Assembly (NCBI RefSeq): GCF_036588685.1
Contig: NC_086381.1
Span: forward strand, 39,990,001-40,054,000
DNA from: Mytilus trossulus
Lineage: Eukaryota
Direction: 5' to 3'
DNA: 64,000 nt
Shown: positions 15,886-60,183 of the stretch, piece by piece
How positions within the stretch are numbered: position 1 is the stretch's first letter
How the letters are laid out: the number at the start of each line of letters is the position of its first letter
Program-made: the position numbers and the translations under genes
Notes under the pieces: model-generated
The model's input: only the letters and a program-made list of their open reading frames with translations
Told to the model about the DNA's origin: nothing
Database searches by the model: none

Positions 15886-18800
15886 CTGAAATGAATATAT
15901 TTTAAAATTTTGTTTCTCAATTTTATAATCATTCATGGATCATACAAAGCAATAGAGTAGTTATTCCTTCTGCTTAAATGAGTTACATACATATGTAAAA
16001 TACATTTTATCATTTTGTCTAACAAAGGAACCGGATTTCAATTGAGGAAGTCCAATAAACAGGGAAAAGTTGAAATAGGTTTAGTTAAGAACGTGCACCA
16101 GACATCCATGACATATAAAACAGTACAATGTAATTCTTCATTATAGAGTGTTAGAATGGTTCCCTATTCTTTATCTGTTTGGCTCTGACAACTGTCTCGG
16201 CTGTACGTTTGTTGCAAGGGAACCAGCCTACATATTGTCATAGATGGGTTTATACATTTATGGTATAGTGTATACTTGAAATGTTGTTTTTTTGTTGTTG
16301 GTGGAATTGATATATGCAATCTGCAAAATTAATTTGCCCAAAAATAACATGGGTGCATAGAGAACGTTCCGGGAAAAGTTATTTTTTTCATAACAGGAAG
16401 AAAATCGTTCTTATATTTATGAGTGGTTGTTGAGGAAACTATTAAAATGTATACTACGAATAGATTTTAATCTAAAATTAAGACAATTAATATATGATCT
16501 ATTAAGAATGTCTCTCTTTATACATTTGTTTGTATTTAATACTAGAAACTTGTGAAACTATATACATTTTTGTTAAAATAAAAGGATTTCTTATTCTAGT
16601 GTGACATAACTTCAGTGCAGCTCTTACTTTTTTATTATAATTGAGGACCATAGAAGAAAACTCAATTATATCATTAGATGCGTGACAGTCGACAAAATTT
16701 ATGCCAGTGCTTTTTTCTTCCAAAAAATCTGTTGAAGTTTTACCTGTTTTCATCGTCTGGTTCTTGTTGTAATACTTCAGCTGTTACAACTTCTTGACTA
16801 AAACATGAAAGTAAAATTACAATAAGAGAATTATTATAATTATCATTGTAAAACCACCCATTTTATCATTTAATAAGTAGCTGCATTCTTATTATAATCA
16901 CGTAACTATTGTAGGTTACAATAAACCTTTAGAATGTATAGGCGCAGACATTTTATGAAGATGATGCAGCCGTTTTATGGAGATGATAGCATGGTATTCA
17001 GAATTAATATTATGACTATTCTGATTGGTCAATATGTGCGCCTTGGTCGATATGTGCGCCCGTTATTTATTATTATTATTATTAGAGACTTCGTGCATTC
17101 TGCATTATACCAAAGGCCAAATAAATTATTTTCTTAGACTTAACGAAACTGAGATGTCTTTTCAACGCTAGAATGAGACACGCATGTTTAGTGCAAAATT
17201 GGTAGGCATGGGAGATATAAGTACAAATTACGTATAGAAAAGTCACTGGAGCGTAAATCTTTTGAACTAAAAATACTGTCCGAAACATTTTTTAATTGAT
17301 TGTAGCAAGGTTTCGTTATAAAAAAAAAAACAGTTTTCTTAAATCTGTAATTCCAGTGGTGTCCAGGTGGGGCCCGGGGATTGAAACCTCCTTTTTTAAC
17401 AATCAATGCATTTGAATGGGGACATAAATTTGGAACCCCCTTAAAAATTCTGGGTTGGGACCACACCCTTTGTAAAAAAAATACTTGATTCGCTCCCGCA
17501 TATCTATAGTAGTAAATGGCAAACAAAGATTTCGAAAAGATTGAATATGAGAATATGATAGGAACTGCTTAAAACCATAACCCATCAGCGATCCACTACT
17601 CTTTATCCTTTCAAACGTTAAATAAATGATTGAAGACTGTGCACACATTTTCCATACATAATTGTACAATGAAACGCGATATTATGTATCTGATTAAATA
17701 CAAGTGCTATCATATACATATTCATTTGATAAATATTAAATTATATACTGGATTTATGACACACTTTATACGGTTAAGATATAAAACTATAACTAAACAT
17801 TTATAAGGGGGACATTCAGATAAAGTGATTTACAATGGCTTACCATGACCCATTTAGACAAGTTATCTTATTAATTTATAACAGTGGAAATTGATATCTG
17901 AGATGATATAATTTCTATATTATACACATGAAATAAAACAATACAATACCTGTGTCCAGTTGTATCTACCGAGTCTAAAGCAGGGGGTGGAACATACCTA
18001 ACATGTGGAGAAAAAAAGAAATGCATAATAACATAAATGTCTTTGATTTGACTGCTAACTTACAAAATAATAACACAGAACGAACAACGTATTTTTTTTT
18101 TTTGTATTTGAGTATCTTTTTTTGTTACCTGCTCTTCAACTTATACACATGTAGTAACACTTACGGTACCAATTTTCTTGCACCAGATGCGCATTTCGAC
18201 AATACATGTCTCTTCAGTGATGCTCGTGGCGTAAATATTTGAAATCCAAAGCTAATATAAAAGATGAAGAGCTATAATCCAAAAGGTCCAAAAAGTATAG
18301 CCAAATCCGTGAAAGGAATGAGAGCTTTGCATGAGGGAGATACATTCCTTAATTTATAATAATTTCTATCATTTTGTAACAGAAAATTTTAATAACACAA
18401 AAAATCCGTATTTTCATGCCAGTACCGAAGTACTGGTACTGGCTAAGGGCTGGTGATACCCTCGGGGACTAATAGTCTACCAGCAGAGGCATCGACCCAG
18501 TGGTAGTAATTACATTTACGGTACAAATTTTCTTGCACCAGATGCGCATTTCGACAATACATGTCTCTTCAGTGATGCTCGTGGCCAAAATATTTGAAAT
18601 CCAAAGCTAATATAAAAGATGAAGAGCTGTAATCCAAAAGGTCCAAAAAGTATAGCCAAATCCGTGTAAGGAATGAGAGCTTTGCATGAGGGAGATACAT
18701 TCCTTAATTTATAATAATTTCTATCATTTTGTAACAGAAAATTTTAATAACACAAAAAATCCGTATTTTCATGCCAGTACCGAAGTACTGGCTACTGGGC

Positions 18801-21800
18801 TGGTGATACCGTCGGGGACTAATAGTCCACCAGCAGAGGCATCGACCCAGTGGTAGTAATAACATTTACGGTACCAATTTTCTTGCACCAGATGCGCATT
18901 TCGACAATACATGTCTCTTCAGTGATGCTCGCGGCCAACATATTTGAAATCCAAAGCTAACATAAAAGATGAAGAGCTATAATCCAAAAGGTCCGAAAAA
19001 GTATAGCCAAATCCGTGAAAGGAATGAGAGCTTTGCATGAGGGAGATACATTCATTAATTTATAATAATTTCTATCATTTTGTAACAGAAAATTTTAATA
19101 ACACAAAAAATCCGTATTTTCATTCCAGTACTTCGGTACTGGCTACTGGGCTGGTGATACCCTCGGGGACTAATAGTCCACCAGCAGAGGCATCGACCCA
19201 GTGGTAGTAATAACATTTACGGTACCAATTTTCTTGCACCAGATGCGCATTTCGACAATACATGTCTCTTCAGTGATGCTCGTGGCGTAAATATTTGAAA
19301 TCCAAAGCTAATATAAAAGATGAAGAGCTATAATCCAAAAGGTCCAAAAAGTATAGCCAAATCCGTGAAAGGAATGAGAGCTTATAGATATAGACAGGTG
19401 AGAAATTTAACTGATGCCTTCAAAATTTACATTTTTGCACTTGAGCCCATTCAGCATATTACAAAACAAAATGACTGTATTTTTTTTTCTGTCTATGAAA
19501 AATAACATAAAAAATGTCGGTAACATTATTTTAAAGTGTGCACCAAATTTGTTATGTTATTTCGAATAGACAGAAAAAATGTTTCAATTATTTCTAATAA
19601 TTAAATTCTAAATTCCGTTTTAAACCGGATTAAACCATAAAAAAAGGTTGATGATGTCACGTTCACATGACTAAATTATGGCCATGAGCTGACAAACAAA
19701 GCAACGTCAGCCAATTAGAAGACGTTACATCCAAAATTTAACTATTTACTAATAAATAGAATAACAAAAATAACAGACTCCATGGAAAATTCAATACAGA
19801 AAGTCTGTTAACAAATGACAGAAAAAAAAAGCTCAAACACACCAAACTATAAATGGAAAACAACTATCATATTCTTGAATTGGCACATGAACATCCCTAT
19901 GTAGAAAATAAGCTGTTTTTTTTACTAGTGCCAGTTTGGAGTGTAATGGTTATAAAAAGGAAACTTTATAATTAAATTGCATAATTAATAGATGGTACTC
20001 ATGTAAACTGAGAGTTCACCAAGTGTGGTACTGATCTATAGTGTAATACCGGTATGCCTTTGTCTTTTGTCTGAAAATCCCTTCATGATTGACAGAGTTC
20101 GCTCGCCAACATAACTTTGGAATACTAAAACCTATACGATTGAACTGTATTCTATCGGTAGGTTTTAAAAACTGTGTCCAATAAAACTTTTCAACATGTA
20201 TAAAAAGTTAAGCATTCGTCGAAAGCATTGCAACCTTTTAAGAAACGGTACCGACTATGGTGCGGGTAAAAGAGGTTGGAAACAGTTATCCACTGTCAGC
20301 TGAATTGACACAGACACGTCTAAAACTGTTTCTGAGTCTATCCCACAGCTGCATGGATCTTAGTTCAAGTAAGTAATTGGAGTTTATGGAAAATGTTTTT
20401 TTTTTCTAATTCGTCGTTTAATACTCGTATAGCTAGTAGTTTACCAAAAACTTTCAAGAACTCTTTAAATAAGTCATGCTATTGATTTCAACGTTCAAAA
20501 TTGAAGATTTTAGAAGAGCTTATTTTGGCGATGTAGCTCTCAATACGTTCATGTTCATTACTTTGAGTTTAGCTTGAATATGAAAATCATAAAATCTTTG
20601 AAATAATTTGCATGTAATTTAAAGTTAGCAATTTGAAGTTAAATATTTTTATTCGGAATTAACTTTACAACATATTTGGTTGCACAAAGGTAATACGGAA
20701 GCCATTTGTATAAATGTTGCAACTATTTTATTTGGATATATACTTCTTAACAAGGTCCGAATATGGTATTTGTCTGTAACTAAACTCTTCATTGATACCA
20801 GACTTAACACAATTGTACGCCAGACGCTGAACCTATGTTTAAGTGTTAAACGTGAAGTGTTACAACACTGAAGCATTTTCTATTATATGAAACAAGGAGA
20901 TAGTATAGTACATCTGTAAGATTCTGTCCTGATATAAAGTTAAAGAAATACATTTTTTGGTCTGAATTCTAGCCGACCTACATGCTTTATGACGACTTTC
21001 ATTTATTCTTGAGATGAAATTTCGTGCGAAAATTGTGGCTTATGTGTATCGATATATCTAGTTTATTTGTATTCATATGCAACGGATAGGAGTTAATCCT
21101 ACTTGTACACGGACGCATCAATATTGAATTTATTTTACAAGTGTATTTGATATCTTAACCTTTACTCTTAGTACAGAAAGCAATAGATTTAGATTAAAGG
21201 TGATAAGATGACAAAATCAATACTCTGGGCGTCTCTTTGGTGTTTAATAATATTGTACCTGTCCAGTTAAATATCACAATATATTCATATGCTTTTGCAA
21301 GCCTACTATACCTTGTTGTACTCTAAACTCATTCTGTGGAAAGAAACACTGTTTAACACTTATACTTATCTTGTGATACTATCTTCGTTAGCTGTGCTCG
21401 ATATACTACCACTATAAATACAACAATAATCGTAAGACCAAGAAAAGCACCAACCGTTCCATAAGCATAATCCAGCCGACTTTTAACTACAAATACAATA
21501 ATACACAAACGAAATGAAGCAGTTCTTGTGCAGGTGTAGTATACAGAGAAAAAAATGCATATGTTTAACTCTACATAATTTATATTGCTTCAAATCGCTT
21601 GTTTGTAGTATGTTTTTGAATATACTCATACAATAAAAATTATGCTCGTTCAGTTTTGGTGAATATTAATCTTATAGACAAGACCTGTTTTCCAAGTCAT
21701 AGGAAGAAAGTTGTAGATGGATTTTCATTTCATAAGATAAAAAAGCTTAACAATTATTACTTTTAATCAAGATGCCTTTGCATTACAGTTTTTGTCTGCT

Positions 21801-24800
21801 TGGTCCTGCGATGGTTTGTAATGGTAACTATCCCCTTTTCCAAAATAGACAAAATATAAGGAAAATAATGTTTAACGTTCCGTGCTGTAGTTTCAGTTTC
21901 GCATAAAATGTAATATCAAGACCATAATATTAATTTTAATATGTTTTAATAATAATACGAAAAGAACAAATACTTAGTATTAACAAGGAAATAAAATATC
22001 AATGATAAAAATCATAATACATGATTTAAAATAATTCCAGCTAAAAGTGAAAGAGAACTTGTTTTAATCTATTGTGTTTAAAACTAAAGTACCTGTATAC
22101 AATGTAAAAAAAAGTCATAAGTGTAAGGTATACAAACCCTCGTTATTATTTCCTGCTTTTGTTTTATTTTCCCAAATACGAATAGCATCTAAAACTTCCT
22201 TTTCTTGAAAGTTTGCTTCTATTATACCAAAATGATTTCTTACTGAACAAGTGTATATAAAACCTGATGAATTTGATGCTGTTGTTAACAACATGGACGC
22301 TTTAAATCCTTCAATAGGGACCAATGTATTGTAGATAGTTAGATTGACGTAATGTCTGTTCAGTGGTAAAGTACCAGGATGTCGAATTGTTTTACTGTTG
22401 AGTAACCACTTTATTTGAATTGGTTCAGGTTTGGAATAAAAGTAAACATCAAGATTCACACTTGTTTTGTTTAGAACGACTATGTCAGTAAACGAAAATA
22501 CTGGAAGACCTGCAAACAAATATTCGCTTAAATAAGATACATGTACCAACTGACAAATTTTAAAGAATTTACAATATTACTTTTTTTTTTGTGCTTAAAT
22601 ATAAAGTGTTTATAAAATGTTAAAATCATTCGATAAATGGATTCTCTACCTCTAAGAAACGATGACCTATTAGATTTGGTACAGTATTTCTGAATGTTTG
22701 AATTTTGAATACTCCTCAACGTCATAATTCACTTTGCCTTCTATTCGATTCGATTAGAGTTCCACTGTTTGCCCTTTTGTAGACTTTTATTGTTCGATTC
22801 CGATTCGTGTCAAATCAAAATGCTATCAGATGATTACCCACTGAACACTCAGCATTTCGAAATGATAATAACACTTTTTACATCAATTTATCGTCCACGC
22901 ACGAACTTGTGCCAGAAAAAAATACATCTGGACATAGTAACCTCACTTTTGATATAGAGATGTGATTTTTTCTGAGCCAAGTGCTTGTCGGACCATCCAC
23001 AAGAACTTGCGGTCACCCGATGTTCAGTACATCAGTACTTTGATTATCTTTGCCTTCATAGGGAACATCATAATTCACTTTGCCTTCTATTCGCTTCGAT
23101 TAGAGTTCCACTGTTTGCCCTTTTGTAGACTTTTTGAGGGTCCTTATAGCTTGCTGCTCGCGTTTTGAACCAAGTCACAGTGCCGTGTGTCCGATTCCGA
23201 TTCGTGTCAAACCAAAATGCTATCAGATGATTACCCACTGAACCCTCAGCATTTCGAAATGAAAATAACACTTTTTACATCAATTTATCGTCCACGCACG
23301 AACTTGTGCCAGAAAAAAAATACATCTGTACATAGAAACATCACTTTCGGGTATAGAGATGTGATTTTTTCTGAGCCAAGTGCTTGTCGGACCATCCACA
23401 AGAACTTGCGGTCACCCGATGTTCAGTACTTCGGTACTTTGATTATCTTTTCCTTCATAGGGAACAAAGGAACGTAAATAAATGAAAGTCAGTGATGTAC
23501 TTTTACCAGTTTTTTGTGTTATTTTACTTTTTAAGATATGAGGAGCTATATGAGCTAATAAGGGAACAAAGGAACGTAAATAAATGAAAGTCAGTGATGT
23601 ACTTTTACCAGTTTTTTGTGTTATTTTACTTTTTCAGATATGAGGAGCTATATGATCTAATAAGACATGAAAAGTGCCACCTAAGGTCTGATTTGACTAA
23701 ATGAGTTGATACCTTAGTTTCCAAAATTGTACTTAGTTATGCACAATTTTTGTGTCAGAATGTCATTAAATTAATACATAAGCTATGTATCGGGAATCAC
23801 AAACCGCTTGATATTACATCATACCAAATTATAAATCGAGAGGAGGATGTTCCGTTCAACATATTGTTATCACACGAGCTACCACTTAACATCTCCTTCT
23901 GACGGCGTCAGTCTAAATATGTGGGTATCAGATCACCGTCATGTAATTGTTCTGTAGATGCTTGTAGTATGCACTTCTCAGCATCTGACACACATCACTA
24001 AATTCAGCATTCCTTGATAAACGCAAAAAATGAAGTAGAAAAACACAAGAGGATGCAAAGCCATTAGAATATTTGAACCGAGGCCATCCAAGCATTTGCG
24101 AAAAAGAATAATTTTAATACAATATATTATTATAGATGCTCTTACCATGAACGGTTACTTTTGCGCTTGATTTGTACACTTTCTCGCCCGAGGTCCATTC
24201 GCAAACGTACGTCCCAGTATCTTTGTAATCGCAAAACTTTATTGTCATAGTGGAAATATTACCATTCATTTCAGAGGAGGGTGATCGAATAAAAATTCTA
24301 TTTAGCTTATGGATCCATTTAGCAGTCCATTCTGTTTGTAAATGTTTGTCCTTGTTAACACATGTCAATTCCACACTTTCTGACGTATTGCAAACTGCTT
24401 CATATGGTACTACAGTGACCATTCCAGCTGATAATATATTATTTCATTGCTTAAAAAAAGTAAACCATAACAAGGAACACAGTTATATTATTTCTAAGTA
24501 AAATTTAGACCTGTTGACAAGGTGTCAAGGATGGAACTATCTCAAAATTATAGAAATTGATAAAGCATTCAGCGTTTCATAACTCACCGAATTGTTTTTC
24601 TGTTATACTTAATGTGTTACCAAATAGTCAATTATGATTATTTAAAAAACAAAGATCATACATATTTTCAATTATGTACAGAGACTCACTATTTTATATA
24701 TTGTAAAATTGGCTGAATTCAACTTAATGCCCTTCTCAATTTCTGCCAACTTTCGAAATTATTAGAAAATTGGTTTTGATTTGGTCTGTTATAATATAAA

Positions 24801-27800
24801 ATTCTTACAAACAAGTTGAATGACGACATCAACACTGCCTACATCATTTCTAATTATCATTTCATATTCTCCTAAGTGACTATTTTCTTCTGGAAGAACT
24901 GTAGTTGAAACGGAATATAAATGATCTGTTTTAGCATTAACTGTCCAATATCCCAATTTCCCTCCTGCAGACATTGTCCATACAATGTCTGGCTTTTGAA
25001 AACTATCAATGATCAATTTTATTTTGGTCGGTTGTCCGAGCTCTGCTTCATACTTGTAGTTTGTGAAGTTATCAGCTACAGTGGGTATATCTGATTTAAA
25101 AGAAGAAAAAAAGTCATATTTATCAAACAGGAAAAGGGACAAATGAAATTAGTTAATGCGCATCTTTACACGGTCTCATAACTTCTTTGATTTTCAAATA
25201 TTAGCTATTAATGACGCTTATACTGTACAGTTTCAAAATAATTTTAATTGATAGTAGTAGATAAACTCATCATAGATATCAGGACAATATTTTGTATATA
25301 CGCCAGACGCGCGTTTCGTCTACACAAGACTCATCAGTGACGATCGAATCGCAAAAAGTTAAAAAAGCAAAATAAGTACTAAAAGTTTTGCCAAATCCAT
25401 CTAAGGTAATCTATGCCTGAGGTAGAAACGCCTTAGTATTTCCAAAGTTGTAAATTTTGTAAACAGTTAATTTATACATTGAAATATATAACAATATTAA
25501 TGATAATTCATGTCAGCACAAAAAGTGCTGACTACTGGGTTGGTGATAACCTCGGGGAAATAAATCTCCACCAGCAGTGGCATCGACCCAGTGGTTGTAA
25601 ATAAACTAATCATAGATGTCAGGACAAAATTTTGTATATACGATAGACGCGCGTTTCGTCTACATAAGAATCATCAGTGACGCTTGTTTAATGACAATCG
25701 TATTCATTATTTGTTTTTTTTAATTCTCTCGTTTATCGCAGAACTTTATTGTTGTAATGAAACTACTACCATTCATTTTCGAGGATGTGATCGAATAAAA
25801 AAACGTTTTAACTTATTTATCCTTTTACCATTTGGTTCTGAGAATTTCAAAACTCACATTTGACAGATACATATAAGCTATCTTCGCCAGTTCCTGCACT
25901 GTTTGTCACTTCACAAGTATAAAGTCCAGCTTGATTTCTTTGAACTTTTAACAAAGATAAAAGGTTATGACTTTCTTCAACAATTACTTGTTGGTTAAAT
26001 TTCCAAACCAGATATGTAGGATAGGTTGTTGTGTCATTTAAACAGAGGAGAGTCACGTTGCTGTTTTCTGTTACATTTGGTGACGGTTCTGCAGACACAT
26101 AGACTTTCGGAGTTACTGCAATACAAATAATAAACAACAAAAAAGCTGCAGTTAGTCAATTTCTTTATATTAGATAAGTAATTAGTATTGAAATAGGATG
26201 ATGTACCTTTTGTTGCAACACGTTTCCGTTGTCAGGCAATATCCCATTGCAGTTTTAGAAAAAGCTTAGAACAGTTGTCATATATGTAGCTTTTACAATT
26301 TCATTAAGGTCGACGTTTTGCATTAGTTTATCATAAAATATTATACACGCACTTTAATAGAACCATCAATAACAATTATAGATGTTTTTCATCTGAAAGA
26401 CACACAAAAACCATGTCGATGCAACCTATCACACCTAACTGCAGCATCAAGGCTGCCCCCAAGCATCGAATTTAACGTATAGTTGTCAATACCGCTACAT
26501 CATGTCGAGTTGTACAATGAGGAACAAGCGAGGAAATATCAACAAATGCAGAATATAACTGGCAAAACAATCTAACTATAATGTCCTTTTAAGTAGCTCA
26601 TAACCAACCCGACAGTATCATTAAATTCATAAACAATACAGAGGATGCATGGTAGGTATCAGAATATTTGGGAAAACATAATTGTGAATAATGAATGGAC
26701 AATAAAGTGATAACGGGTTCGACTGCAAACGGTGCTTAGGGTTCTAGTTGTATTTTTGAGAGTATTCAACTAAACAAGTCTATGCAGATATTTAATTTTT
26801 TTTTTTTATATAACAATAATCGGTAAAATTGTTATAAAAACCTTTTACAAAGAGTGGTAATGTTGTTTGGAGTTTGAAGAATCCGTTGTCTGCTATACAG
26901 GTGAAATTTTCCATATGGTCTTCTTTGGAAGGTATAAATATAAACCTAACTACTGTTGTATTCGTAACATTCACAACGTCATCTCCATATAGTAAAGATA
27001 ACGTTGGTTCCGGTAAACCTCCAATTACGGAACAATTTACTTCCATAGCCATTCCTTCATATCCGATTATCCTTTCGAGACTATTGTTTCTGCCTATTAT
27101 AAGGCTGGATGGTATTTCTGCAAAACAATTTAGATAATATTTGTGTGTATGTATTTAAATATTACTTATTGTTGTATAGAGCGTATAAACTAAAATGGGG
27201 AAATCTTATATACGAAGACAAAGACAAGTCAATGCAAATGATGAGATGTAATCACCTATAGATATCTATACGGCCTTCAACAGTTAGAAAATACTATACT
27301 GTATATGCCACTTTAAAAGACATCGACATGAAATAGATATAAATCGAGATTCAGTACTTCAATGGAACAAATACAATACATAAATAGTTTAGTTTAGTTG
27401 TTTGTGTTACAAAATACATGTATAGCTTTGTTTAGTTTTTTTTGTTACATGTACCTTTTCTGACATCAGACTCAGATCTCTTTTACTTAGCTTCACTGTG
27501 TGTATTGCTATGTGTTTCTTTATTTTATATTGGCCAGAGGTGTAGGGGGAGGTTTGCGATCTCACAAAACATTCTCAACCCCGCGGCATTTATGCGCCTG
27601 CCTCTGGCCTTTGCTAGGTTGCAGACATTTTTCGTTGAGTTGGAGACCCATCGGTGGCCTTCGGTTTTCGTTTGCCCTTTTGTCCGGTTGTTGTGTCATT
27701 GACATATTCCCTATTTCCATTCCAAATTTTATACATTCATTGTATAAATCAATATCAGTTTTATATTTTCGCATTAAAGTTCCCTATTGTTCCTCCTGTC

Positions 27801-30114
27801 GTTGGATTTTGCTTACGCACTTTAAATAGATCTAAAACAAAATTGTGGCATTATTTGAGCTGTCTTATATCATCTATTATAAATATATTAAACTGTCAAA
27901 TGAATTATGTGGAATAATTCTATGCTACCATAAGATAAACATTACCAGCTAGAGTAATAATGAATCCATGCTCCGTTGTCTTCCCATCCCTAATGGTATC
28001 ACATTTGAAAAGACCTTGATCGCTTTCAAAAAACATTTCAATATGTAAACTGTAATGTTTTGTCTTCCCTTCTTTTATTATTCTTATGCGTTCATCATTT
28101 TGAAGGTTGTCATTCACGTTCTCATTTATTCCGTACAGCTTTAAATCTGGTGGTCCACGCCATATTATTGCTCCTGTGTCCGACAAAAATGGACATGTTA
28201 AAAGGACTGTTGAGTTGACCTTGACATAGATTATATCACTTGAATCTCCTAAACGTAAATCAGTTATAATTAGCATGAGGCTTGCATTATTTAACAAACA
28301 ATGTAACATACAACCAACATTAAATGTGTATTTCAAGTTAATATGTTTTTTGCATCGGCTGCAACTGAAGTCGCCAAATACCAAATGATGGGGTGCGATT
28401 CAAATCGGAAAAGGCAGTGGTGTTATGATGTGAATTTCTCACATAATATGAGCTATAGGTTAAATATAGTCGGTATATGGGCTTCGCATGTCCGTCTTAC
28501 AGGGTTCATCTGACCTTGATCTTAGTTCATTAAACAGCTATCGAAGATAAAAGTTTAGTCCGTATCACAGATACTATTATAAGCAATATGTCAACTAAAT
28601 TATGGGGAATTGATTGATTGTAAGGTGTTCAAATGTATATAATATCTGTCAGACAGGGTTCATATGACTCGTCCTCATTTTCATGGTTCATTGGGTAATT
28701 TTGATCATTTGTCAACGGTAAGCTTGACAATCAAAGTGAAAAATCGTTCAACATAAAATAACAGACCTTTACCTTACATATATTTCTTGCAAAAGACCGA
28801 AAAATACCAAACAGACCTATTCTTTGTAATATTTTGTTTTTGACTAGCACAGTATACCATCAATTTTCAAAATACTTAAATAAAGGAAACTGTAATATAC
28901 CGCTGTTCGAAATTCACAAATCGATAGAGAAAAAACAAATCCGGGTTACAAACTAAAACTGAAGGAAGCGTCAATTATAAGAGAACTGCGACACAACAGA
29001 TTCACAATATTTAAATGTAACACACACAGACACGAACTTTAATATAACAGTGGCCATTTTCCTGACTTTGAACAGGGCATTTTAAGAAAACAAATGGTGG
29101 GTTGAACCTGGTTTTGTGGCATGCCAAACCTCCTGCTTAAATGGCATTCGCAATGTTAATAATAATATTAAAATTACAACATTACATGACAGGACTACCA
29201 TTCAAACAAATTTGAGAAAATATAGGACAGAGAATCAAACGAATAATAGCCAACGAAAAGTACCAGGTTAAAAATTTAATACGCCAGACGCGCGCCACGT
29301 CCACACAAGACTAACCAGCGACACTCAGATGAAAAAAGTTTGTAAGCCAAAACAGGTCCAAGTTGACTATTGCGGAGGACCAAAAGTTCCAAAAAGGTGT
29401 GACCAATGCGGTCAGGGTAATCCTTATTATTTAAAATAATTCACACTTTTGCAAACAGTAAATTTTATAAAATGACTATATAATAGATATACATGTTTAT
29501 AATGAAGTGGTGACTAGCTACATAATAAAAAGGGATACATTACAAAATTACACAGCCGCGTTATGCAAAGCCAGTGCAACGCACAAAGTACAAAGTGACG
29601 TTACACTTGAATTTCTAAAACGAGTTCCCAAAATTAAGAAAGAATCTGGAGGAAATTCAAGATTAGATTTGTATGACTTATTTAACATTTATAAATAACA
29701 GGGAAAATTACAATACTAATTAATATCAAATTGTAGTAGTAATAAGTAGATAAATTAATTAATTGTATTATCTAGCTATGTCGGTGTTTCTGATGGTTTT
29801 GAGATATTTGGAAAGAACGATTTCATATCTTCATTCTTTTGTAAAACTTTACGAAAACCATTTAATTCTAAACTGCATCTATGATGTTAATAAACAACAC
29901 TAAATTTGGAAGAATGAAATCTAAGTAGATATTTTGATGTATTTTTTTAAAAGAATATCTAAGACAAGGTAGGCGTGGTTAAATTGAATTAGTTTATTGA
30001 AGTTACAGGAAGATAAGTATGTATTGCATACACACTGGTTTTGTAGATACCTTTAAATCGTAATATGCATACGCTGATCAGTATAACTAGAATGGTTCCA
30101 TGGTGACGCATCAT
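15675..30114 (-). CDS. Multi-exon immunoglobulin-superfamily type I membrane receptor (signal peptide, 6 Ig-like domains, TM, Tyr-motif cytoplasmic tail; ~763 aa; nephrin/hemicentin-like annotation class)
   Basis: Phase-consistent GT-AG exons: 30051-30114 (MMRHHGTILVILISVCILRFKG), 27946-28248, 26842-27117, 25858-26115, 24809-25090, 24146-24427, 22138-22509 (all phase 1-1), TM 21366-21486, optional 20050-20070, 17950-17997, 16744-16797, 15675-15885. Total 2292 nt with no internal stop. AATAAA at 15543-15548. Confidence 0.85.
18180..18223 (-). ncRNA. Type I hammerhead ribozyme (family A copy 1)
   Basis: GCAUCA-CUGAAGA-GACA uguau UGUC-GAAA-UGCGCA-UC^UGGUGC. Confidence 0.9.
18535..18578 (-). ncRNA. 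Type I hammerhead ribozyme (family A copy 2)
   Basis: Identical core and stems to copy 1. Confidence 0.9.
18885..18928 (-). ncRNA. Type I hammerhead ribozyme (family A copy 3)
   Basis: Identical core and stems to copy 1. Confidence 0.9.
19236..19279 (-). ncRNA. Type I hammerhead ribozyme (family A copy 4)
   Basis: Identical core and stems to copy 1. Confidence 0.9.
21366..21486 (-). CDS. IgSF receptor exon: transmembrane helix
   Basis: YAYGTVGAFLGLTIIVVFIVVVYR; TTGTAG acceptor. The donor AA|GTATAA gives the phase 2 required by the downstream exons. Confidence 0.8.
22138..22509 (-). CDS. IgSF receptor exon: Ig-like domain 6 plus stalk
   Basis: GLPVF...FYSKPEPIQIKW...YTCSVRNHFG; TGCAG acceptor. 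Confidence 0.8.
22723..23662. repeat. Intronic tandem duplications (~350-400-bp unit x2, followed by 102-bp unit x2)
   Basis: CATAATTCACTTTGCCTTC at 22723 and 23069; AGGGAACAAAGGAACG at 23459 and 23561. Confidence 0.85.
24146..24427 (-). CDS. IgSF receptor exon: Ig domain 5
   Basis: SVELTC...KWIH...DTGTYVCEW; TCAG acceptor and GTAAGA donor. Confidence 0.85.
24809..25090 (-). CDS. IgSF receptor exon: Cys-less Ig-like domain 4
   Basis: AELGQPTKI...PDIVWT...GEYEMIIRNDVGS; TCAG acceptor and GTAAGA donor. Confidence 0.82.
25301..25342 (-). ncRNA. Type I hammerhead ribozyme (family B, intact)
   Basis: CGUCA-CUGAUGA-GUCU ugugu AGAC-GAAA-CGCGCG-UC^UGGCG. Confidence 0.88.
25641..25682 (-). ncRNA. 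Type I hammerhead ribozyme (family B, stems I/II mutated)
   Basis: CUGAUGA and GAAA are intact, but the first stem II pair and part of stem I are disrupted. Confidence 0.6.
25858..26115 (-). CDS. IgSF receptor exon: Ig domain 3
   Basis: ENSNVTLLC...WKFN...QAGLYTCEVTNSAG; TGCAG acceptor and GTGAGT donor. Confidence 0.88.
26842..27117 (-). CDS. IgSF receptor exon: Ig domain 2 (C2/CD80-like)
   Basis: EVNCSVIGGLPEPTLSL...PSKEDHMENFTCIADN; TTGCAG acceptor, weak donor. Confidence 0.8.
27946..28248 (-). CDS. IgSF receptor exon: Ig domain 1 (V/I-type)
   Basis: VLLTCP...IIWRGPP...YSLHI...SDQGLFKC; TTTAG acceptor and G|GTAATG donor. Confidence 0.85.
28878..29660 (-). mobile_element. Penelope-like element 3'-region remnant with decayed hammerhead (~29281-29325)
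   Basis: Homologous to 31671-32620 (AAATAAAGG..AC.GTA.TATACCGCTGTTC; GGTGGGTTGAACCT.GTTTTGTGGCATGCCAAACCTC). Confidence 0.65.
30051..30114 (-). CDS. IgSF receptor exon: signal peptide
   Basis: Hydrophobic N-terminus, phase-1 donor AAG|GTATCT, and an upstream acceptor at 30139-30140. Confidence 0.7.
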
Positions 30115-31670
30115 AACATTCAAAGCAAATCCATTCAACTAAAAGAAATAAATCACAGTAAAAGATACGAATGTTGAATTTCACTTTCATCAAGACAACT
30201 TTTATTCTCCAAATGTATGCCGAATTCGTGGGAATTCATGCAATATATACGACCATTGGTAGTTTTGTAGATTTTGAAGACCTCAAAAAGATTAAAAAAT
30301 GTATGATTGCCAATGAGATAACAAACAACAACAATCCAGAAGAGACTTAATGAAGCAGATGTAAGCTGACCGATTGTCCATCGAAAAACTTTGTAAAAAT
30401 TAAAGACTCAATACAATTACTAGTATTTATACATCAAGATAATGATTACCAGCATAAACATTAATTTCAAAGAAAACAGCTGCAAGTACGTAGTATATGG
30501 AAAAAAATTATAAACATAATTATTGTTATTGATAGTCAAATAATGGAATAAAACAAAATTATAAAATCTTATATCTCCCAGCTGCTCTGTCTAAAGTCAT
30601 TGCTTGAAAGTAATCCCTTTTAAAACCTTGAAAACAGCTCGCTAATAACAGCTATTTGTATATAATTAAATGCTTAGAATGGAAGCAACTATAATTTTAA
30701 GAAGACAGTAATGCGTTTTAAATTTGACTTGCAATGAGGTGTGAGTTGGATTTTTTGCTTTGTGTTGAAGGCCTTACTGTGACTTCCAGATGAAAAACAG
30801 CAATAAAAGTGACGTGTGACCTTATGTGTTTTTTCTGTGCCTTATAATGATTTTGTGAACGTCATTGAAGAATGTCCCATATCCTTTCTCTTCTATAAAC
30901 TTACAAATAAACCTAAAGAAATACCAATGGATGTGTAACTGCTTTTGTTGTTTGTCCTAAATATTTCATGAATTAATATTAGATGAAAAAAGCAGGAATT
31001 ATATAAAGACATAAATCATCCCATTGGACGAATATTTCTAGCTATCAGATATATATTCTCTTCAATTTAAACATTTTAAGACCAGACAAATACACTAGAA
31101 AACTAAGTCAGATCATTTGAAGTTAGTACTAGGTGTGTAATATGATGTAACAATATCAAAGAAAGCTAATAATAGAATTCAAACATGAGGTGAATTTAGA
31201 TGGTAATACATTATCACTTACTCTATATATCAAGGTATAGTTTCAACTTCCCTTTTCCAAGAATTAGTTGAACGTGTGATAGAGGTTCAAAACAATCAGG
31301 AAATATTAATTCATTTTTATTTTGACCTTCATGTTCGATTGTTTTCCTCTAGAACCATGAACGGAAATTGTTATTTGCATTAAATATATCTAATTCTAAA
31401 ATGTATTCCTGCAGCAAACCGGATGATAGCATTTGAATAATAACTCATAACATCCTGTTTTAAACCTATCGAGATACCAACTGTGAAATATTTCATTACA
31501 ACATCAAGACTGTATAACGAATGAATGTCTCAGTATATCATAGTTATATCTATATGACATTATAAGATTGGTATGATTTACATTGAAACAATTATCAATC
31601 AAGGACCAAAAAACCAAACGTCACTGCACGGGTTAAACAACGAGTTAAACTCATACCGTACAAAAATTAT

Positions 31671-34022
31671 AAATAAAGGCAACAGTAGTATACCGCTGTT
31701 CAAAACTCATAAATCCATGGACAAAAAATAAAATCGGGGTATAACGAACTAAAACCGATGGAAACGCATTAAATATAAGAGGAGAACAACGACACAACAC
31801 TGAAATGTAACACACACAGAAACGGACCAAGCATCAGACAAAATCCCACGAGAATAACAAATATAACATCAAAACCAAATACATGAATTTGGGATAGACA
31901 AGTACCATGACACGTCTTATCGCAATGTGAATTACACTAAAAAAAAGAGAGAAAACAAACGACGCAACGTTAAAATGTAACACACACAGAAACGAACAAT
32001 AATATAACAATGGCCATCTTCCTGACTTGGCACAGGACATTTTTAATGGGAAAAAAATGGTGGGTTGAACCTAGTTTTGTGGCATGCCAAACCTCGCACT
32101 TTAATGGCAATGTTAAATAAAACATTGAAATGACAACATAATATAACGGGACTACAATACAAATAAATAGGAGAACATATTCGACAAAGAAACACATGAT
32201 TAATAGATAACAAAATTCATCAGGTTTAAAATTCATAAGGCCAAAAACGCGCCTCGTTCACACAAGACTAGACGACAGAAGACGCCCAGGTATAAAAGAT
32301 TGAAAGTGAAAAAAAGTACAAAGTTGTACAGCACTGAAGATCAAAAGTTGAAAAAAGGTTGTGTCAAATACGGCTATGTTTTTATACTAGGGATAAGAAC
32401 ATCCTTATTATTTGGAACAGTTAAAGCTATTGCAAACAGTAAATTTAATCAAATGAATATAAAACAGATATACATAATGAAACTGAAGTATTAACTAATT
32501 ACAGAAAATTAAACCTGAATACATAATGCTAAGACTAACACAGAATAGACACACCCGATTCAGTCCAGGCCTCAACGCAATAAATTAAAAATGACGTCAC
32601 ATACGATTGAGAAAAGGCAGAACAAATAAGTCACATTTGAATTTATGAAATTTCTGAAACAGCGTAAAAATGACGTCACAGATGAAAAACTATAATTCAA
32701 ATGTAAGATGGAATTAGGACAGATTTAAGATTATATTAGAACTAAATACTGATATCACATTTAAACACAATGCATATTGCAATACTTATTAATAGCAATT
32801 AACTATAATATATATATGTTCAGTTTGTTATGAATCAAACTTCAAACGTAATTTTTCGTACAGATTACGTTGAACAAAATTAAATTTAATAAATAAAGCG
32901 GTGATTAATTTTTCTTTACATAACACATAAATATAATAGAAAAAGACGTCAACACATTTGACAAAATCCGATGAGAATTACAAATATAACATTAAACATT
33001 TAAACTAAATACATGAATTTGGGATAGACAAGTACCGTAACACGTCTCATAGTAATGCGAATTCACATTCAGCAAAACAGTCACAATCGGGAATAAGTCA
33101 CGTTATTTAATTAAAAGATTTAACGACAAAGTGACAAACCACAATCTACCATATGGTAAAAATGTCCTTAGCTAGTTTGGTTAAAGACACATCGTATGGA
33201 TCCACCAATTCGTGATGGTGTCCATAAAATTTACGGAGTGTCAATTTTAATCTGTCCTCCTAATAACTTTGTTGGAGCAGTTTCTGCGTAAGGAGCACAC
33301 TCCTGTATATGAAATCCGTATAGTGTGAACAAGTACGTGAATAACGTATCAATTGTGATATGTAAACACCATACGAAGGGGCAGAGAGTATGTTACTGCT
33401 GAGAATTGGGAAATTGATAATTGGGAAGTTGAAATCGTCCCGTTTATCATAGATTTTAGTGTGAAGTCATCCATCTTCGTCAATATTGAGGAAAAGATCA
33501 AGGTATGAAGCAGTCCTTTTAGTATCAGTAGTATCCTTAATTTCAAGTTCACTGGGATATATGAGATGTAAGTATTGGCTTAAGTATGGGTTATTCAATG
33601 ATAGAACATCATCAATATATCGGAAAGTAAAATTAAAGAATTTCGCAAGGTGCTTTTTCTTTTTGTCTTTTAGAAGGTTTTGAATGAATTCTGCTTCATA
33701 CGAGTACAAAAACAAATCAGCCAGCAGGGGTGCACAATTAGTACCCATTGGAACCTGTCTGTTGAAATATAAATCCTCCAAACTCAACAAATATATTTTC
33801 GATCAAAAAGTCCAGCATTTTGATAATATCATCTTCAGTATATTTTCTGGCAGATTCAGTGTGATTCTTCACCAAATATGAATTATTGTAACCCAAAACA
33901 AGAAATTTGTATCTACGATTCCCATTTTTATAGAAAAAGCTCTGTTTTATGAGATGGTGAAGTCGATCTTTCAACTGAGCATGGGGAATAGTAGTATATA
34001 GCGTAGAAAAATCAAAAGTTTA
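31671..34022 (-). mobile_element. 5'-truncated Penelope-like retroelement (Naiad/Chlamys-type RT) with long 3' region
   Basis: RT remnant at 33146-34022. The 3' non-coding region is shared with 28878-29660 and includes a decayed hammerhead unit at ~32240-32500. Confidence 0.75.
33146..34022 (-). pseudogene. Reverse transcriptase remnant (Penelope-like)
   Basis: FDFSTLYTTIPH, PMGTNCAPLLADLFLY, FRYIDDVL, SYLDL, YDKRDDFNF, YGVYISQLIRY motifs. One frameshift (~33750) and two in-frame stops (~33467, ~33270). The ORF ends without a C-terminal GIY-YIG domain. Confidence 0.9.
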
Positions 34023-36587
34023 TAAGACTCCGACATGAACAATTTATAGAACAATTCAAAGTAAAAACATCAACAGCCTGATTAAGTACAAAGAAATAAA
34101 CATAAAACAGATATGATAAACAGTGAACAACGACAATCACTGAATTACAGGATTCGACACATTCAGAATGTCGCAGTATCAAACATATTTTCGATTGTCA
34201 CTGATGTAAAAGAATCGTATTAGAATAACCGTGACATGCATGATCAACACAAAGGGTTCCTATATGTGGAGATGAAACAATTTTGGAACACCTGAGTTTA
34301 AACCCCGTTTGTTTTAATAGAGTTCTTAATTTTCTTTGTAGCTACTGTTTAAATAGTTCGTTTGTTCGTCGTATATTTTTGGGGTTAAGTTTTTCTTACG
34401 ATTTTGCTTGCTGAGTGTTTTGTATATGCAACTTTCTGTGTTTCCTTTGTTCTTATAACGTGGCTCTGTACTTTAAAAGCTCCCATCATTATGTTATTGT
34501 TCAATTATATGTCATGATGTTATTGTTTTATTATAAATTGGAAAATACGTTGAATGACAAACGACAAAAATAATAACCGTATGTGGATTTTTTTTAAATT
34601 CTAAAAAAATGGACAATTTTAAATCTCGGTCTATTTCTGAAATGAATACTAATTTTAGGTTTGATTTTTTAACCCTATATACCAACATTCCCCATGTGAA
34701 ATTGTTTTGAATAGACAATGAACTTCCTATGTGACATTTACATTTTCTGACGTCATACACGCGAATCAATGAATGTTGGTTTTTTTAATTTGATAGATGC
34801 TTATATGCTTTTTTGTAAATGATTGTTTGTTTTGAGATTGGGCCATTCCAGTTAATGTATGCAAAAGAGGGATGGATGGTCCTACCTGAGGGGTGTAAAT
34901 TTTTTATACCTAAGGTGTGAATTTTGGTGGTTTTTTTTGTCTGACACCTAGTATTATACGCAACAAACTTCTAAGGGTCTTTCAGCAAACATTTGATTTA
35001 TTTGTGGTTACTTTCGTTTGTTTTGGTGTTCGTTTGTTTAATGAGTATGTATATTTTGTTTATATAGTACATTGTGTATCAAGAATTACCATTGGAGAAA
35101 TATTATGTTTCAAACTTCGTATCTGGAGTATACAAAACAGAACTGCATTGTTGGTACTTGTTCGCTAACTAAACCAATGGTCATGTTAGTTTTTTAGAGC
35201 AAATTCTAAAGACATTCTGGATAATTTCAAATCTCGGAATGTTTTTGAAATGTATTCTAACATAACTTTTGATTTGTTAACCCTGCACACCACCAGTCCT
35301 CATATGAAATTATAATTGTCTGGTTTATACATTGAACGACAAAAGTTCTTCCTATGTGACGCTTACATTTCCTGACGCCAAACACGCCAAACAATGTTTT
35401 TTTTTTAATTTGATAGATGCTTTTTGTGCTTTTTTGTAAATATTTGTTTGTTTTTAGATTGTAACACAGTGGTGACTGCTGTAACCATATTTTGACTATT
35501 TTACCTATTATGTCTGTTTTGTTCACACATCGATGTATAAAATAACGTAATTTGATGCGACTGTCATACCAGTGAGAGGTATACCGCTATAATACCAGGT
35601 TCAATCCATCATTTTTTTCATTTGAAAATCTATGTACCGAGTCAGGAATATGACAGTTGTTGTCCATTCATTTGATATGTTTTATCATTTGATTTTTCTA
35701 TTTGATTAGGGACTTAAATTAGGGTTTTTAATTTTCCTCGGAGTTCAATATTTTTATGATTTTACTTTTTACCCGGACGCAGAACCTGGCTATCTTAACT
35801 AATTCTTTGAACCAAGTCTTGATACCTTATTTTGTATAACACCGTGAAGGTATTTATTAATTAATCTCAGATTGATTGGACGATAGTCAGTATATTTCTC
35901 GTAATCAAACATTTATCCGCATCCGAACGTGTCTGTTTTTCACCACTGCCGGAAAACATGCCTCAAACTCCCCTCTTTGTCGTGGTATTTGCCATTTTGG
36001 ATACTCCATTATTACCCTCGCAAGGCATATCCCACAAAAAACCATGCTCACCTTATCCCGATTATTAAGGCAACATGATTTGATTGATAGAGGTAATCCC
36101 AAACCCATTGACTGGTATTTTTGGCAAATGCATCTCCATAAAATGATATATCTGTTCAAAAACACATTTGCACTAGTCAATAAATATGAAACATATTCAT
36201 GTGCTTTGTATTGGTAATTTGTTTGAAATTGTTTGATCTAAAGCGTATTAATATTTTTTTCAAAATAGATTATGATCTAAATAAAGTAAAAAATAAATGA
36301 AATGAAAAAAATACATTTTATTTAACATATAACAACATTTTAAAAATGAACAAAATTAGCAGAACATTTTCATCAATAAAACAAAATTTAATAGTCAGTA
36401 CAATGAATACAATTCTTATATACAAAAATGCCCGTTGAAATTTAACATATACATGTAATTAAGTTAACAATTTATATGTGAAATTGGGGAACAACGAAAA
36501 CTAGAAGGAAAAATACCAATACTATGTAAAAAAATACGGATTTATGTTTTAAATTACAAAAAAAGATTTATAAATCTCAATCGTCCA

Positions 36588-45333: not shown

Positions 45334-47966
45334 CAAATACCATGCAGATCATCGTTTTGGTCAGTCTTAAAGGTTGATAAATGTTTACATCTATATAAAC
45401 TATATCATATTCGTCCAAATACTTGTACTTGACAATTTTACGATAGACATTCTTAATCGGATAATCTTGTATTGTTCAGCTCAAACTCAAATAATGTTAA
45501 AACTGTACGGACTACCAGAACCATTCGTCAAACACATAGAAGTATTTTATTTACCTTATTGTCTACCGCTACAATCATCCAAATGTTTTAAATTGGACTT
45601 ATTAGGGAAATTCCATTTTCTATATTTAGAATACAACAGAATTAAGATATGTTCTACACGATAAATGTTTTATTTTCTATAGTATAATGATAAAAAAAAA
45701 TATTACTAGAGTTATAGTTATCAAATGAAATTACAAATAAGAAATAATGAATGATATTATTATTAGTAGTAGTATTAGTATGATCATTACAATTCAATTA
45801 TGGTGTAATATATAGGGAGATACCCGCATAAGTTATAAAGGTATATATAAATATAAGTTTTCTGTTTGATTCCGAGTAAATTTGAATTCTAAAATGTAAT
45901 TCCAAAAAACAACTGGCATCTTTTATGATACATTACAATCAAAATAAACTCTGCAGTTCAGCTTTTTCAAGCCACTATATAAATTCTATGGAAACAACTT
46001 AATTGAAAATTTTATACATATTGGACACTTTAAACGGTACAGCACAAATACATAAAGCAAACTATAAAAAAATAGTCTTTAGATGATTACAACGATGCTG
46101 ATGAAAGATAGAAAAACAAATACGAGGAACAACAACAATTGCCATTCATCAGTATTATAATCTCTTTTGAAAATCTGATCTATGTCTGTAAAAAGTGCTC
46201 ACTCATTCGATCAGAAATATTATACCATATCGAATGAAATCAATCAGTCTATTCTAGGCAGACAGGGTTGTTTATGTTCACATGCATCTACTTTAATGGA
46301 CGTGTATTATCATCTTTGGCATTCCAATACTGCTCCACATATCGTTTGTTTCGTTGTTTTCAGATTTGTCCAGAGCATATATTATTACAATGACGTTGAT
46401 ATGTTTGTTTTCATTCATCTTCTATTGTTAACTCTTAAAGTTCTAATTGTATGGTGTTGTTTTTTTTTTTTAACTATTTCAGATTTTGTATTTATATAAT
46501 CTTCATTCTTTCGCAACCTTAAAAGTGTCTTTCTAAAATAGTTGTTGAATGAGTTCAAGTATTTTTCAGTCAGAGTCAGCCTTTTGATTTGACACTATCT
46601 GTTTTAATGATGGCAAAATTGAATACTGAAAGTTAGTGTTTGTAGTCGCACAGCAAGTTAGTAAGTAAGTTCTGCCAGTGAGTTTATGTTCTTTAGACAT
46701 GTGTTTCGACATGTTCGTTCGCAAGTTTCGGTAATAGAACCTACTCCATTGTTTTAACCCTTTTAGTCACTATTGCGTTGCAAAAATTGAAAGGAGAGAC
46801 AATTTGCAACTACAACAGTAAAGTTTGAAAAAATACATTATGAACTGTGTTACTACCTTAGATAGAACTGATGAGTAACCTATAGTTGGTATGTAACCTC
46901 AGGTGCTAGACACAGTGCTGAATTATTGTCTGTCCACTGTGTCACAATAGCATTGTGTTCATTGAGGGGAGAACAACTTATTACAAATACAAATTTGTAC
47001 ATTGCTTAATTTTAAAAGAGGAATATAAATATGTAATGTTTAACAACTCCGTCCTATATGTAATGGTAATATCTCAATTACGCAAATTAAGGTAGAAATA
47101 ACTAATGGATAAAGTTACGCATCAACTTTTCTCCACGTTGCGAGTATATTAATTAACTTTTACAATGGACATAAAATGGTCGTCATTCAATACATCTTTA
47201 AAAAATGACCAGTCAATAAACAAGTAAGCTAAATAGAATAAGGAATAAGTAAGTATTTACCTAAATGTCTGCTTTAAAGTTCGCTACAACGTAATGATGG
47301 ATTATCAAGGGGAATTCCGTTACGTAACGATTTCTTTATTTAAATTACTCTTCAATGTGAAGCCTAAATAGATACATTATACATGATATAGGTTTTATTT
47401 TCAAAAGTATAATGATAAAAGTATTACTAAATATGGAGGGATTAAAAAGAAATCAGGAAATAATAAATCATATTGTTATTATTAGTTTTATTATAATCAT
47501 TACAATTCAATCATAGCGTAATGTATAGAAGGGAGATAACCGTGAAAGATCTACAAGTATAAATAGATAACACCTAGTTTTCTTTTTGGTTCCAAGTAAC
47601 ACAAATTTTAAAATACAAGGCCGAAATAAACAAATGACATATCTTTTGATAATTTAAATCAAGATAAACTCTGCAGACATAGCTTCTCTAAGTGACTATA
47701 TAAAGTATATGCACGACAAACAACGTACCAGAAAATTGAATACATATTGTGCAGGCCTACAACGATACAACACAAGTATATCAATATCTAGAATTTAAAG
47801 CATTAAGATACAAAATACATGATATATGTTTTATTTTCAGAAGCGTAATATATAACAGATATATAAACATGTAACATCTAGTCTTCTGTTTCATTTATTA
47901 TACACATAAATCTTTAAAAATCTATGTCAAAAATCAATAATTGTCATATTTTAAAGAAAAAAACAA

Positions 47967-48282
47967 CTTTACGACAAAAGAGATGATTTTAGATTTTCAA
48001 TTGTCAACTTTCCTTTTCTTTATAGCAAGATTCCTGCAGCGCCTACGGAGTATATATCTCCCAATTGATACGATATTCCAGTTCTGGATTTTCCTATAAT
48101 GATTTTCTTGATAGATGGTTGCTGTTCAAAGGAAGCTATCAAACCAAGAGTTCCAGATGGTGAAGTCGAAATCATCCCTTTGTAAATTTTACGGACGCCA
48201 TGTCTTTTTTCAGCTGTGGCGTTGTCAGTTTATTTCGATTAATAAGTTTGAATATCCCTCTGGTATCTTTCGCACATTTTTT
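47967..48282 (+). mobile_element. Second Penelope-like RT C-terminal fragment
   Basis: LYDKRDDFRFSIVNFPFL...YGVYISQLIRYS...KFYGRH, frameshifted. Confidence 0.8.
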
Positions 48283-48774
48283 GAAGATACATTCTTATCA
48301 GAATACACTCCACATGTGTAGACTCTTACACAGAATAAATTAAATGATAAAAAACGGAGTTTTCTTGAAATGTTTTAAATGTCACAAACGCTAGGTATTT
48401 TCATGAAGTTGAATAATATGATTTATATGTTCATATAATAAGAAAGCGTACTCGTGAAATTGGATTTTTCTAGGTCTGTTTGATTTCATAAAATATCTGT
48501 TTTTTAAGTTTAACTTTGATTCATTGTTTTTCTTTTTAATAACTGAACACGGCTAAGTCAAGCGTAGTCCATCTTTGGCTCAGGGGTTCAATTGAAGGGC
48601 ACTACATCCAATGAGGTCAAATTCTTCGTTGGCTAGTTAATAATGCATCAAGTATGCTTCTTAGCTTTTTTTTGAAAAAAATAATCCAAACTGGCTTCTA
48701 AAAGCGAATAATTATTTCACTATAGTATATGCGTTTATATTTATATCTCGTAGCTTACACCCCTTTAAATGAAT

Positions 48775-59750: not shown

Positions 59751-60183
59751 ATTGTGTAATCATACGTTTTTTTATTGAGTTAAGTCTGCAAATTGATATT
59801 TTATCGTGTGTTTTTCTATGTTGTGATGTTATGCTATTGTTTCAGAAAAAGGGAGAAGGTTTGGATCCATTAAAACGTTTAATCCCGCTGCAAATGTTTG
59901 CACCTGTCCTAAGTCAGGAATCTGATGTACAGTAGTTGTCGTTTGTTTATGTAATATATATGTGTTTCTCTTTTCTTGTTTTGTTTATATAGATTAGACC
60001 GTTGGTTTTCCCGTTTGAATGGTTTTACACTAGTAATTTTGGGGCCCTTTATAGCTTGTTGTTCGGTGTGAGCCGAGGCTCCGTGTTGAAGGCCGTACTT
60101 TAACCTATAATGGTTTACTTTTTAAATTGTTATTTGGATGGAGAGCTGTCTCATTGGCACTCACACCACATCTTCCTATATCT
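59751..60183. mobile_element. Dispersed repeat inserted in satellite
   Basis: Non-satellite block. Its end is the reverse complement of the family at 186-570, and it carries the CCTGTCCTAAGTCAGG motif. Confidence 0.7.

Follow-up and report, generated by a model that had tools for sequence, protein, structure and literature searches.

The window, that is, the whole 64,000-nt stretch of Mytilus trossulus DNA analyzed here, is AT-rich and comes from a 1.3-Gb genome. On its reverse strand, at 31670–34024, lies a 5′-truncated copy of a Naiad, a Penelope-like element (PLE), which belongs to subfamily N1a of a family designated N1 and consists of the 3′ part of the ORF and a 1.48-kb 3′ UTR. An earlier sequence-only reading had placed a Naiad-type reverse transcriptase (RT) remnant here, and such a remnant is indeed present: the RT/thumb part at 33146–34019 (−) corresponds to amino acids 636–927 plus the stop codon, with a frameshift near 33730–33755 and two in-frame stops, and 33149–34019 (−) is 84%–95% identical to amino acids 636–927 of a 927-aa N1 frame. 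The 3′ UTR is composed of a proximal part (32498–33145, −), a lineage homolog of which is also found in the segment-free subfamily E, a retrozyme-derived segment (32202–32497, −), located inside the UTR 530 nt from the element end, and a distal part (31670–32201, −), which is common to subfamily E and partly to another family, N3. The 3′ end at 31670 is fixed across the family, with 27 of the 29 other fetched N1 loci reaching 31660–31673. The window also contains a short frameshifted Naiad-type RT remnant with 60% nucleotide identity to N1 (47965–48201, +) and fragments of a 3′ UTR motif common to N1, E, and N3 (35549–35668 and 50706–50847). Long minisatellites with 42-bp and 19–21-bp repeats are located at 6535–9085 and 58460–64000, and several frames of 100–160 aa at 22115–28399 (−) read, by eye, like immunoglobulin-domain exons.

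The retrozyme-derived segment corresponds to positions 65–355 of the consensus of a retrozyme subfamily, R0, and contains the small hairpin and ATG remnant, the body, and the hammerhead, up to the fixed retrozyme end. It covers 291 nt of the 354-nt R0, with its start inside the small hairpin that immediately precedes the ATG and its end where R0 arrays end; it is a single, 5′-truncated, dead-core copy and not a self-standing tandem retrozyme unit. In its type I hammerhead (32240–32287, −) the CUGAUGA box is replaced and GAAAC is changed to GAGGC. By established hammerhead knowledge a core changed in this way would be inactive, and on the basis of these core changes cleavage has presumably been lost in the N1 segment. 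Folding of the segment scored only slightly better than that of shuffled sequences (z of −1.9 and −2.1), and a scan of the window at Rfam gathering thresholds gave 0 matches. The alignment of 32200–32520 with retrozyme family B (25254–25540) scored 96, with 180 of 248 aligned positions matching, while 500 dinucleotide shuffles scored 32.9 ± 5.3 with a maximum of 52. The score against family A was 50 (shuffle maximum 48), and that of the segment against R0 was 225 (shuffle maximum 61; 210 of 288 aligned positions matching).

The second remnant in the window is a copy of an older subfamily, N1b, of which the 3′ UTR alone is present (28877–29791, −), with a segment at 29245–29516 (−) and a hammerhead remnant at 29283–29326 (CUGGUUA/GUGGC). 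Region 29260–29530 scored 138 against B (shuffle maximum 46), 80 against A (maximum 44), and 234 against R0. Hence, the homology of both remnants to family B, together with the presence of decayed hammerheads, which the sequence-only reading had proposed, is confirmed, but the best match in both cases is the third subfamily, R0, and the similarity to A is much weaker. That reading had also ascribed the same arrangement to the second remnant, which is correct for the segment and its decayed hammerhead, but not for the RT, as tblastn found none with this copy in the window. An RT is located upstream in 7 of 29 relatives of this remnant. No intact core was found among 30 N1b rows, and 8 nt of the core are missing in 15 of 30 N1b-type copies.

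The 37 intact retrozyme monomers from the fetched loci cluster into three main subfamilies, A, R1 (equivalent to B), and R0, with tandem units of 351 nt, about 365 nt, and 354 nt, respectively, and intact type I cores. R0 is 81.2% identical to B and 65.1% to A. In the window, family A forms an array of 3.5 units of 351 nt (18151–19383, −), which has four intact hammerhead cores and three Naiad-type hairpins, while family B is represented by about 1.25 units (25254–25682, −) with an intact-core hammerhead at 25298–25342; this retrozyme sits between the immunoglobulin-like frames, on the same strand. Its “structured domain” (25509–25594, −) is made up of a Naiad-type 5′ hairpin, the small hairpin, and an ATG. 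By eye, all 8 pairs of the small hairpin are formed in R0, while the oldest N1 consensus forms 6 of them. Short family A-like fragments are scattered at 10606–10730, 54054–54142, 60956–60997, and 61527–61568. A tandem dimer of 615-nt units (48774–50017, −) has an R0-type body and lacks the hairpin motif; its units are 93% alike, an 11-nt insertion disrupts the hammerhead, and the other 230 nt have no match among the fetched loci. This dimer may be another repeat that captured R0, in a second such event. At one fetched locus (L178) the end of an R0 array is directly followed by an inverted retrozyme piece, as in the inverted arms of PLE insertions.

In the DNA search of the genome for N1, the best 40 of 3,210 first-look candidates were scored, and since the best 40–150 candidates were scored per search, all genome counts given here are lower bounds. 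The reference locus, L073, contains a partial tandem together with a near-full-length 4.76-kb N1 copy, to which the window copy is 88%–89% identical. Its 927-aa frame combines an N-terminal GIY-YIG, CxC, GPKY, DKA, and RT in one ORF, the features by which Craig et al. (PMC8557442) recognize Naiads. The Pfam GIY-YIG domain was matched at amino acids 58–146 (E value 1e-4, above the cut-off), while the RVT_1 match at amino acids 673–776 was weak (E value 0.011, below the cut-off). The frame has CSISKCNRKNCKTC, a Cys motif upstream of GIY-YIG, as well as PPDCSC, GPKY, and PADKAS, all of which align with N3, and no gap interrupts its alignment with N3, the reference used, over the insertion-in-fingers region that lies between RT3 and RT4. 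Partial tandems (pLTRs) were found in L073, L134–L136, L139, and L140, and among 20 young copies the 3′ end was common to 19 and all were 5′-truncated. When loci were chosen by RT protein alone, with long frames, the segment was found downstream of the RT in 19 of 19. The proposed linkage of RT, hammerhead-like segment, and N-terminal GIY-YIG in full-length copies therefore holds, and full-length copies devoid of the segment, which would have spoken against it, were not seen among these loci. At least 40 copies (40 scored) are 99%–100% identical to L073 over the dead-core region, which indicates that N1 spread recently without a canonical core. An exact pattern combining the intact core and the N1 loop was matched 26 times, mostly in R0 arrays and in no case with N1 flanks after it, and in a search for permuted hammerheads no CUGANGA was found in the N2 and N3 UTRs and one was found in N1, outside a hammerhead context.

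RNA reads from four runs gave no independent N1 transcript on L073. The reads came from both strands, with loose ends at the element 3′ end and a depth of 0–1.6 over the 5′ 670 nt, which fits read-through of truncated copies. No pile-up was seen at the homolog of the cut site in the four runs; in one run two small piles were located 35–40 nt upstream of it. These reads are uninformative on cleavage. In the youngest N1 subfamilies 243 nt of the retrozyme body are tandemly duplicated, with the upstream copy ending before the hammerhead (for example L073:8700–9200); the window copy does not have this duplication. Nested arrangements were also noted: a family A array harbors a full-length, co-oriented N1 with pLTR (L136:795–7501), with about 6–9 nt repeated at the junctions, an N1 copy lies inside retrozyme-like sequence in L203, and a young N1 lies inside an old copy of a further subfamily, N1c, in L215.

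Subfamily N1c was traced from this L215 copy, and subfamily E was obtained in a screen for distal flanks without the segment. Subfamily E has both the proximal and distal UTR in common with N1, its consensus being 83% identical to N1b over 384 nt of the distal part, but between them it has 28 nt as compared to about 280–290 nt in N1b, and neither R0 nor R1 matched it significantly (best E value 0.097). An N1-type RT is located upstream in 6 of 30 E loci. The consensus of N1c-TGAG, the oldest N1c group, reads CUGAUGA-helix II-GAAAC-GCGCGUC, and in sequence it is a type I hammerhead, with CUGANGA, helix II, GAAA, and an NUH triplet. Both core halves are present in 4 of 15 pattern-selected copies; an RT remnant is joined to intact core nucleotides in L283, and a fully canonical hammerhead motif lies within N1 flanks in the copy L259/L319. 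The core series in the consensuses runs from CUGAUGA/GAAAC through CUGAUAA or CUGAUUA to CUGGUUA and then to GUAGC, GAGGC, or deletion. The identity of the segment to R0 is 90.3% in N1c-TGAG, 88.6% in N1c-CTGA, 87.9% in N1c-CTGG, 81.4% in N1b, and 74.6% in N1a, while N1c-TGAG is 80.1% identical to family B and 64.5% to A. The identity of the distal flank to its own consensus is 87.5% in E (n = 21), 90.6% in N1c-TGAG (n = 10), 91.3% in N1c-CTGA (n = 6), 92.2% in N1c-CTGG (n = 16), and 91.9% in N1b (n = 23).

The order of the subfamilies was also examined in a tree of the RT and the distal flank, with the segment excluded and with N2 and N3 from the same genome as outgroups. The 15 copies that bear the segment group together as one clade (97/99), with L283 and L296, both of the N1c-TGAG type, in basal position, and four E copies are placed at the base of this clade, without a supported stem of their own. 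In the first RT tree E was unplaced, and it was placed when N1c copies and the distal flank were added. In AU tests the grouping of E with N1a and N1b was rejected (p = 0.002), while E with N1c was compatible (p = 0.16), as was a clade of R0 and B excluding N1 (p = 0.46). The retrozyme body trees were rooted at the midpoint, on the long A branch. Row R0_L141m308, E_L246 (in the tree), and 12 loci fetched twice were left out.

A search with the endonuclease revealed two further young Naiad families, N2 (3.37 kb, 66% amino acid identity to N1) and N3 (4.28 kb, 59%), the latter of which matches the published Naiad_Mgal start by eye. Many intact frames, of about 1000 aa in N2 and 1056 aa in N3, are spread over different contigs, and some of them form head-to-tail tandems. 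The segment is absent from N2 and N3, and N2 has no hammerhead-like sequence; a canonical hammerhead is absent in N1a, N1b, N2, and N3, and present in the extinct N1c-TGAG. The downstream copy in L073 opens with a 75-nt GC-rich stretch ending in ATG, which has its match in the structured domain that A and B retrozymes contain, and the same hairpin opens N1, N2, N3, and the published Naiad_Mgal and Naiad_Mcor consensuses. Hence the structured domain, which the sequence-only reading had regarded as acquired from an unnamed source, is the 5′ hairpin that opens three Naiad families. The hairpins of Naiads N1, N2, and N3 and of retrozymes A, B, and R0, each with an ATG after it, have one common bulged stem (z of −2.5 to −4.5) that covaries. 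In an alignment of 10 rows, 99% of cells are paired, and both sides are changed in 7 of the 23 pairs, a number reached by 4 of 500 shuffles, which is not to be read as a probability, as the rows are related. CATGAA is kept across the 10 rows, save for one B row with CATTAA. Full-length retrozyme hairpin rows are 84%–89% identical to N2 and 69%–74% to N1, and one partial row is 78%–80% identical to N2.

Naiad copies and R0 arrays stop just before the hairpin. By analogy with Poseidon_Ac, in which reverse transcription begins inside tandem RNA at a stem–loop near the ORF start (PMC11167929), this hairpin may mark an internal start of reverse transcription, and a Naiad enzyme could copy retrozyme RNAs via the shared hairpin. 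At the level of sequence, N2 is the best match to the retrozyme hairpin, and the chances that N2 mobilizes retrozymes appear evenly balanced. The search for the retrozyme helper is in this way narrowed to the Naiad 5′ hairpin and family N2. That N1, proposed earlier as a candidate autonomous partner in the same window, is the obvious one is not supported, as the retrozyme hairpin is nearer to that of N2, which is itself hammerhead-free. At L141 (G000:C10:12866900–12873900, −) an R0-type dimer, starting at the hairpin, abuts an N2 pLTR in the same orientation, and the retrozyme does not continue past N2 within the locus; this junction may be a template-switch chimera.

Taken together, the ancestral N1 probably captured a retrozyme and then lost its ribozyme. 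The capture is read from a series that runs from E, without the segment, through intact-core copies 90% identical to R0, to dead cores at 75%, and the simplest history compatible with these sequences is likely that an R0-type monomer was captured once, later than the E stage, and then decayed. A master copy of the ancestral N1 would have taken up most of one retrozyme monomer, probably once, when a 5′-truncated R0-type cDNA entered the 3′ UTR by insertion or template switch and replaced about 28 nt. The hammerhead would then have decayed stepwise while N1 kept multiplying; cleavage in this place would part the ORF from the hairpin downstream of it, and the decay could have been neutral or selected. 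The sequence-only reading had derived families A and B from the terminus of this PLE lineage, which is not supported; the segment is nearest to R0 and looks captured from it. The ATG context of the segment is a Naiad 5′ feature. On the other hand, no convincing target-site duplication was found around the segment; an 18-nt direct repeat was considered in this role and dropped, since 20 young N1 copies have no such duplications, as judged by eye, and E differs there. At about four of the positions that distinguish N1c from R0, the 28-nt filler of E has the N1c state, which together with short repeats flanking the missing parts means that E could be a deletion product. The empty-site argument would then be gone, while the affinity to R0 and the position of the hairpin–ATG remnant would stay. 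The 5′ truncations did not clearly pile up at the cut site (2 of 15 in the intact-core subfamily versus 2 of 30 in the dead-core control, which includes four near-identical neighboring copies), and hence there is no sign of the captured ribozyme cutting N1 RNA.

The same data were weighed against the opposite direction, in which retrozymes arose from an ancestral, intact-hammerhead N1 through two deletions in tandem RNA, one removing the ORF and the other the distal UTR, and E lost the segment later. In favor of this history are an extinct N1 subfamily with an intact core, 90% identical to R0, the short microhomologies at both junctions, and the resemblance of the E filler to the segment start; the retrozyme tree is rooted by the midpoint alone, and Li et al. 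(2026) read the Xenopus pLTR–retrozyme homology in this direction. However, families A (about 35% divergent) and B (about 20%) would then have to postdate the N1c–R0 split (10%), or else retrozymes were built three times with identical junctions. In addition, N2 is nearer than N1 to the A and B hairpins, an origin from a 5′ end agrees with the ATG context and the small hairpin, and E is older and basal. This origin of retrozymes from N1 is therefore considered improbable. Less improbable, although still doubtful, is that N1 donated the enzyme which mobilizes retrozymes, a role compatible with capture by template switch, as the latter would require the N1 RT to copy retrozyme RNA. The recent activity of N1 and the same fold of its hairpin, with compensatory changes, are consistent with such a role, but the identity of the hairpin is lower than that of N2, N2 has many intact 1000-aa frames, and insertion at the DNA level by any Naiad would yield the same capture.

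Two further explanations concern the segment itself. It could have been kept or co-opted as a functional element of the N1 3′ UTR, acting by its structure or in regulation and not by cleavage; all later subfamilies have kept it, and in the youngest ones 243 nt of it are duplicated. The steady divergence from R0 down to N1a, the loss of the small hairpin, the missing 8 nt of the core in half of the N1b-type copies, and the only modest fold make this explanation highly unlikely. Alternatively, the similarity could reflect a copy-specific nested insertion, as retrozymes occur in large numbers and have N1 copies inserted in them (L136, L203), or chance resemblance of AT-rich sequences. The chance of this is negligible in view of the scores far above shuffles and of the same position of the segment in all 19 RT-selected loci, where its linkage to RT and GIY-YIG in full-length copies shows that it is not a one-off nested insertion.

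The findings bear on why PLEs carry hammerheads and where animal retrozymes come from. Retrozymes are usually taken to have budded from the termini of PLEs, but the direction of derivation does not follow from shared sequence. The genome studied here holds a time-ordered set, with no segment, an intact ribozyme, and a decayed ribozyme, in a clade published as hammerhead-free. On balance, we lean slightly toward the view that hammerheads in PLEs can be stowaways, with a retrozyme that uses Naiad enzymes by way of their 5′ hairpin entering the UTR of its helper, for a short time giving a Naiad a canonical hammerhead, and later being inactivated stepwise. If true, this would provide a dated fossil series for the idea that hammerheads parasitize PLEs, and the parasite-to-host direction may hold for PLE–retrozyme homologies elsewhere too. 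The series also offers direct constructs for testing the benefit or harm of a hammerhead to a PLE.

The idea of such parasitism was raised by Craig et al. (PMC8557442). In the parts of that paper compared here, Naiads lack a canonical hammerhead, two Mytilus entries have no HHR comment, and “HHR_core” is flagged for some non-mussel Naiad entries; the premise of the earlier reading, that PLEs carry hammerheads, consequently fails for Naiads as published there. Family N1 is similar to these Naiads in its N-terminal GIY-YIG, CxC, DKA, partial tandems, and 5′ truncation, and it may also have their insertion-in-fingers region, as aligned to N3. It differs from them in length, 4.76 kb as compared to 3.4–4.4 kb, and is a separate family, 59% identical in amino acid sequence to N3, which by eye matches the 5′ sequence and N-terminus of Naiad_Mgal; both published Mytilus Naiad consensus entries resemble N3 and not N2 (PMC8557442). 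In the compared parts of Craig et al. (2021), Cervera and de la Pena (2020), and Li et al. (2026) there is no retrozyme inside a Naiad and no decay series; N1 could be held in the uncut consensus files of the first of these papers, in Repbase, in Dfam, or in the bioRxiv supplements.

The non-LTR retrozymes of Mytilus galloprovincialis have 350–390-nt tandem units with type I hammerheads of two ribozyme families, and PLEs were proposed as their mobilizers (Cervera and de la Pena 2020, PMC7229834). Subfamilies A, B, and R0 are like them by description, the comparison being to the text and not to clone sequences; the portion of the paper compared names no partner, Naiad hairpin, or retrozyme inside a PLE. 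Poseidon_Ac belongs to another clade and its hammerhead overlaps the start codon, and the role of the Naiad hairpin is suggested by analogy; in that system hammerhead mutants were not impaired in insertion in vitro, and the C3 and G8 mutants of the hammerhead were inactive (PMC11167929). In Xenopus, retrozyme families homologous to PLE termini were read as PLE-derived (bioRxiv 10.64898/2026.07.22.740005). That work, as far as compared, is focused on vertebrates and describes homology between retrozymes and the pLTR terminus, while the segment described here is located inside the 3′ UTR, and the ordered subfamilies point to the opposite direction. In contrast to the published Naiads, which have none (PMC8557442), the extinct N1c-TGAG had a canonical hammerhead, which was apparently borrowed.
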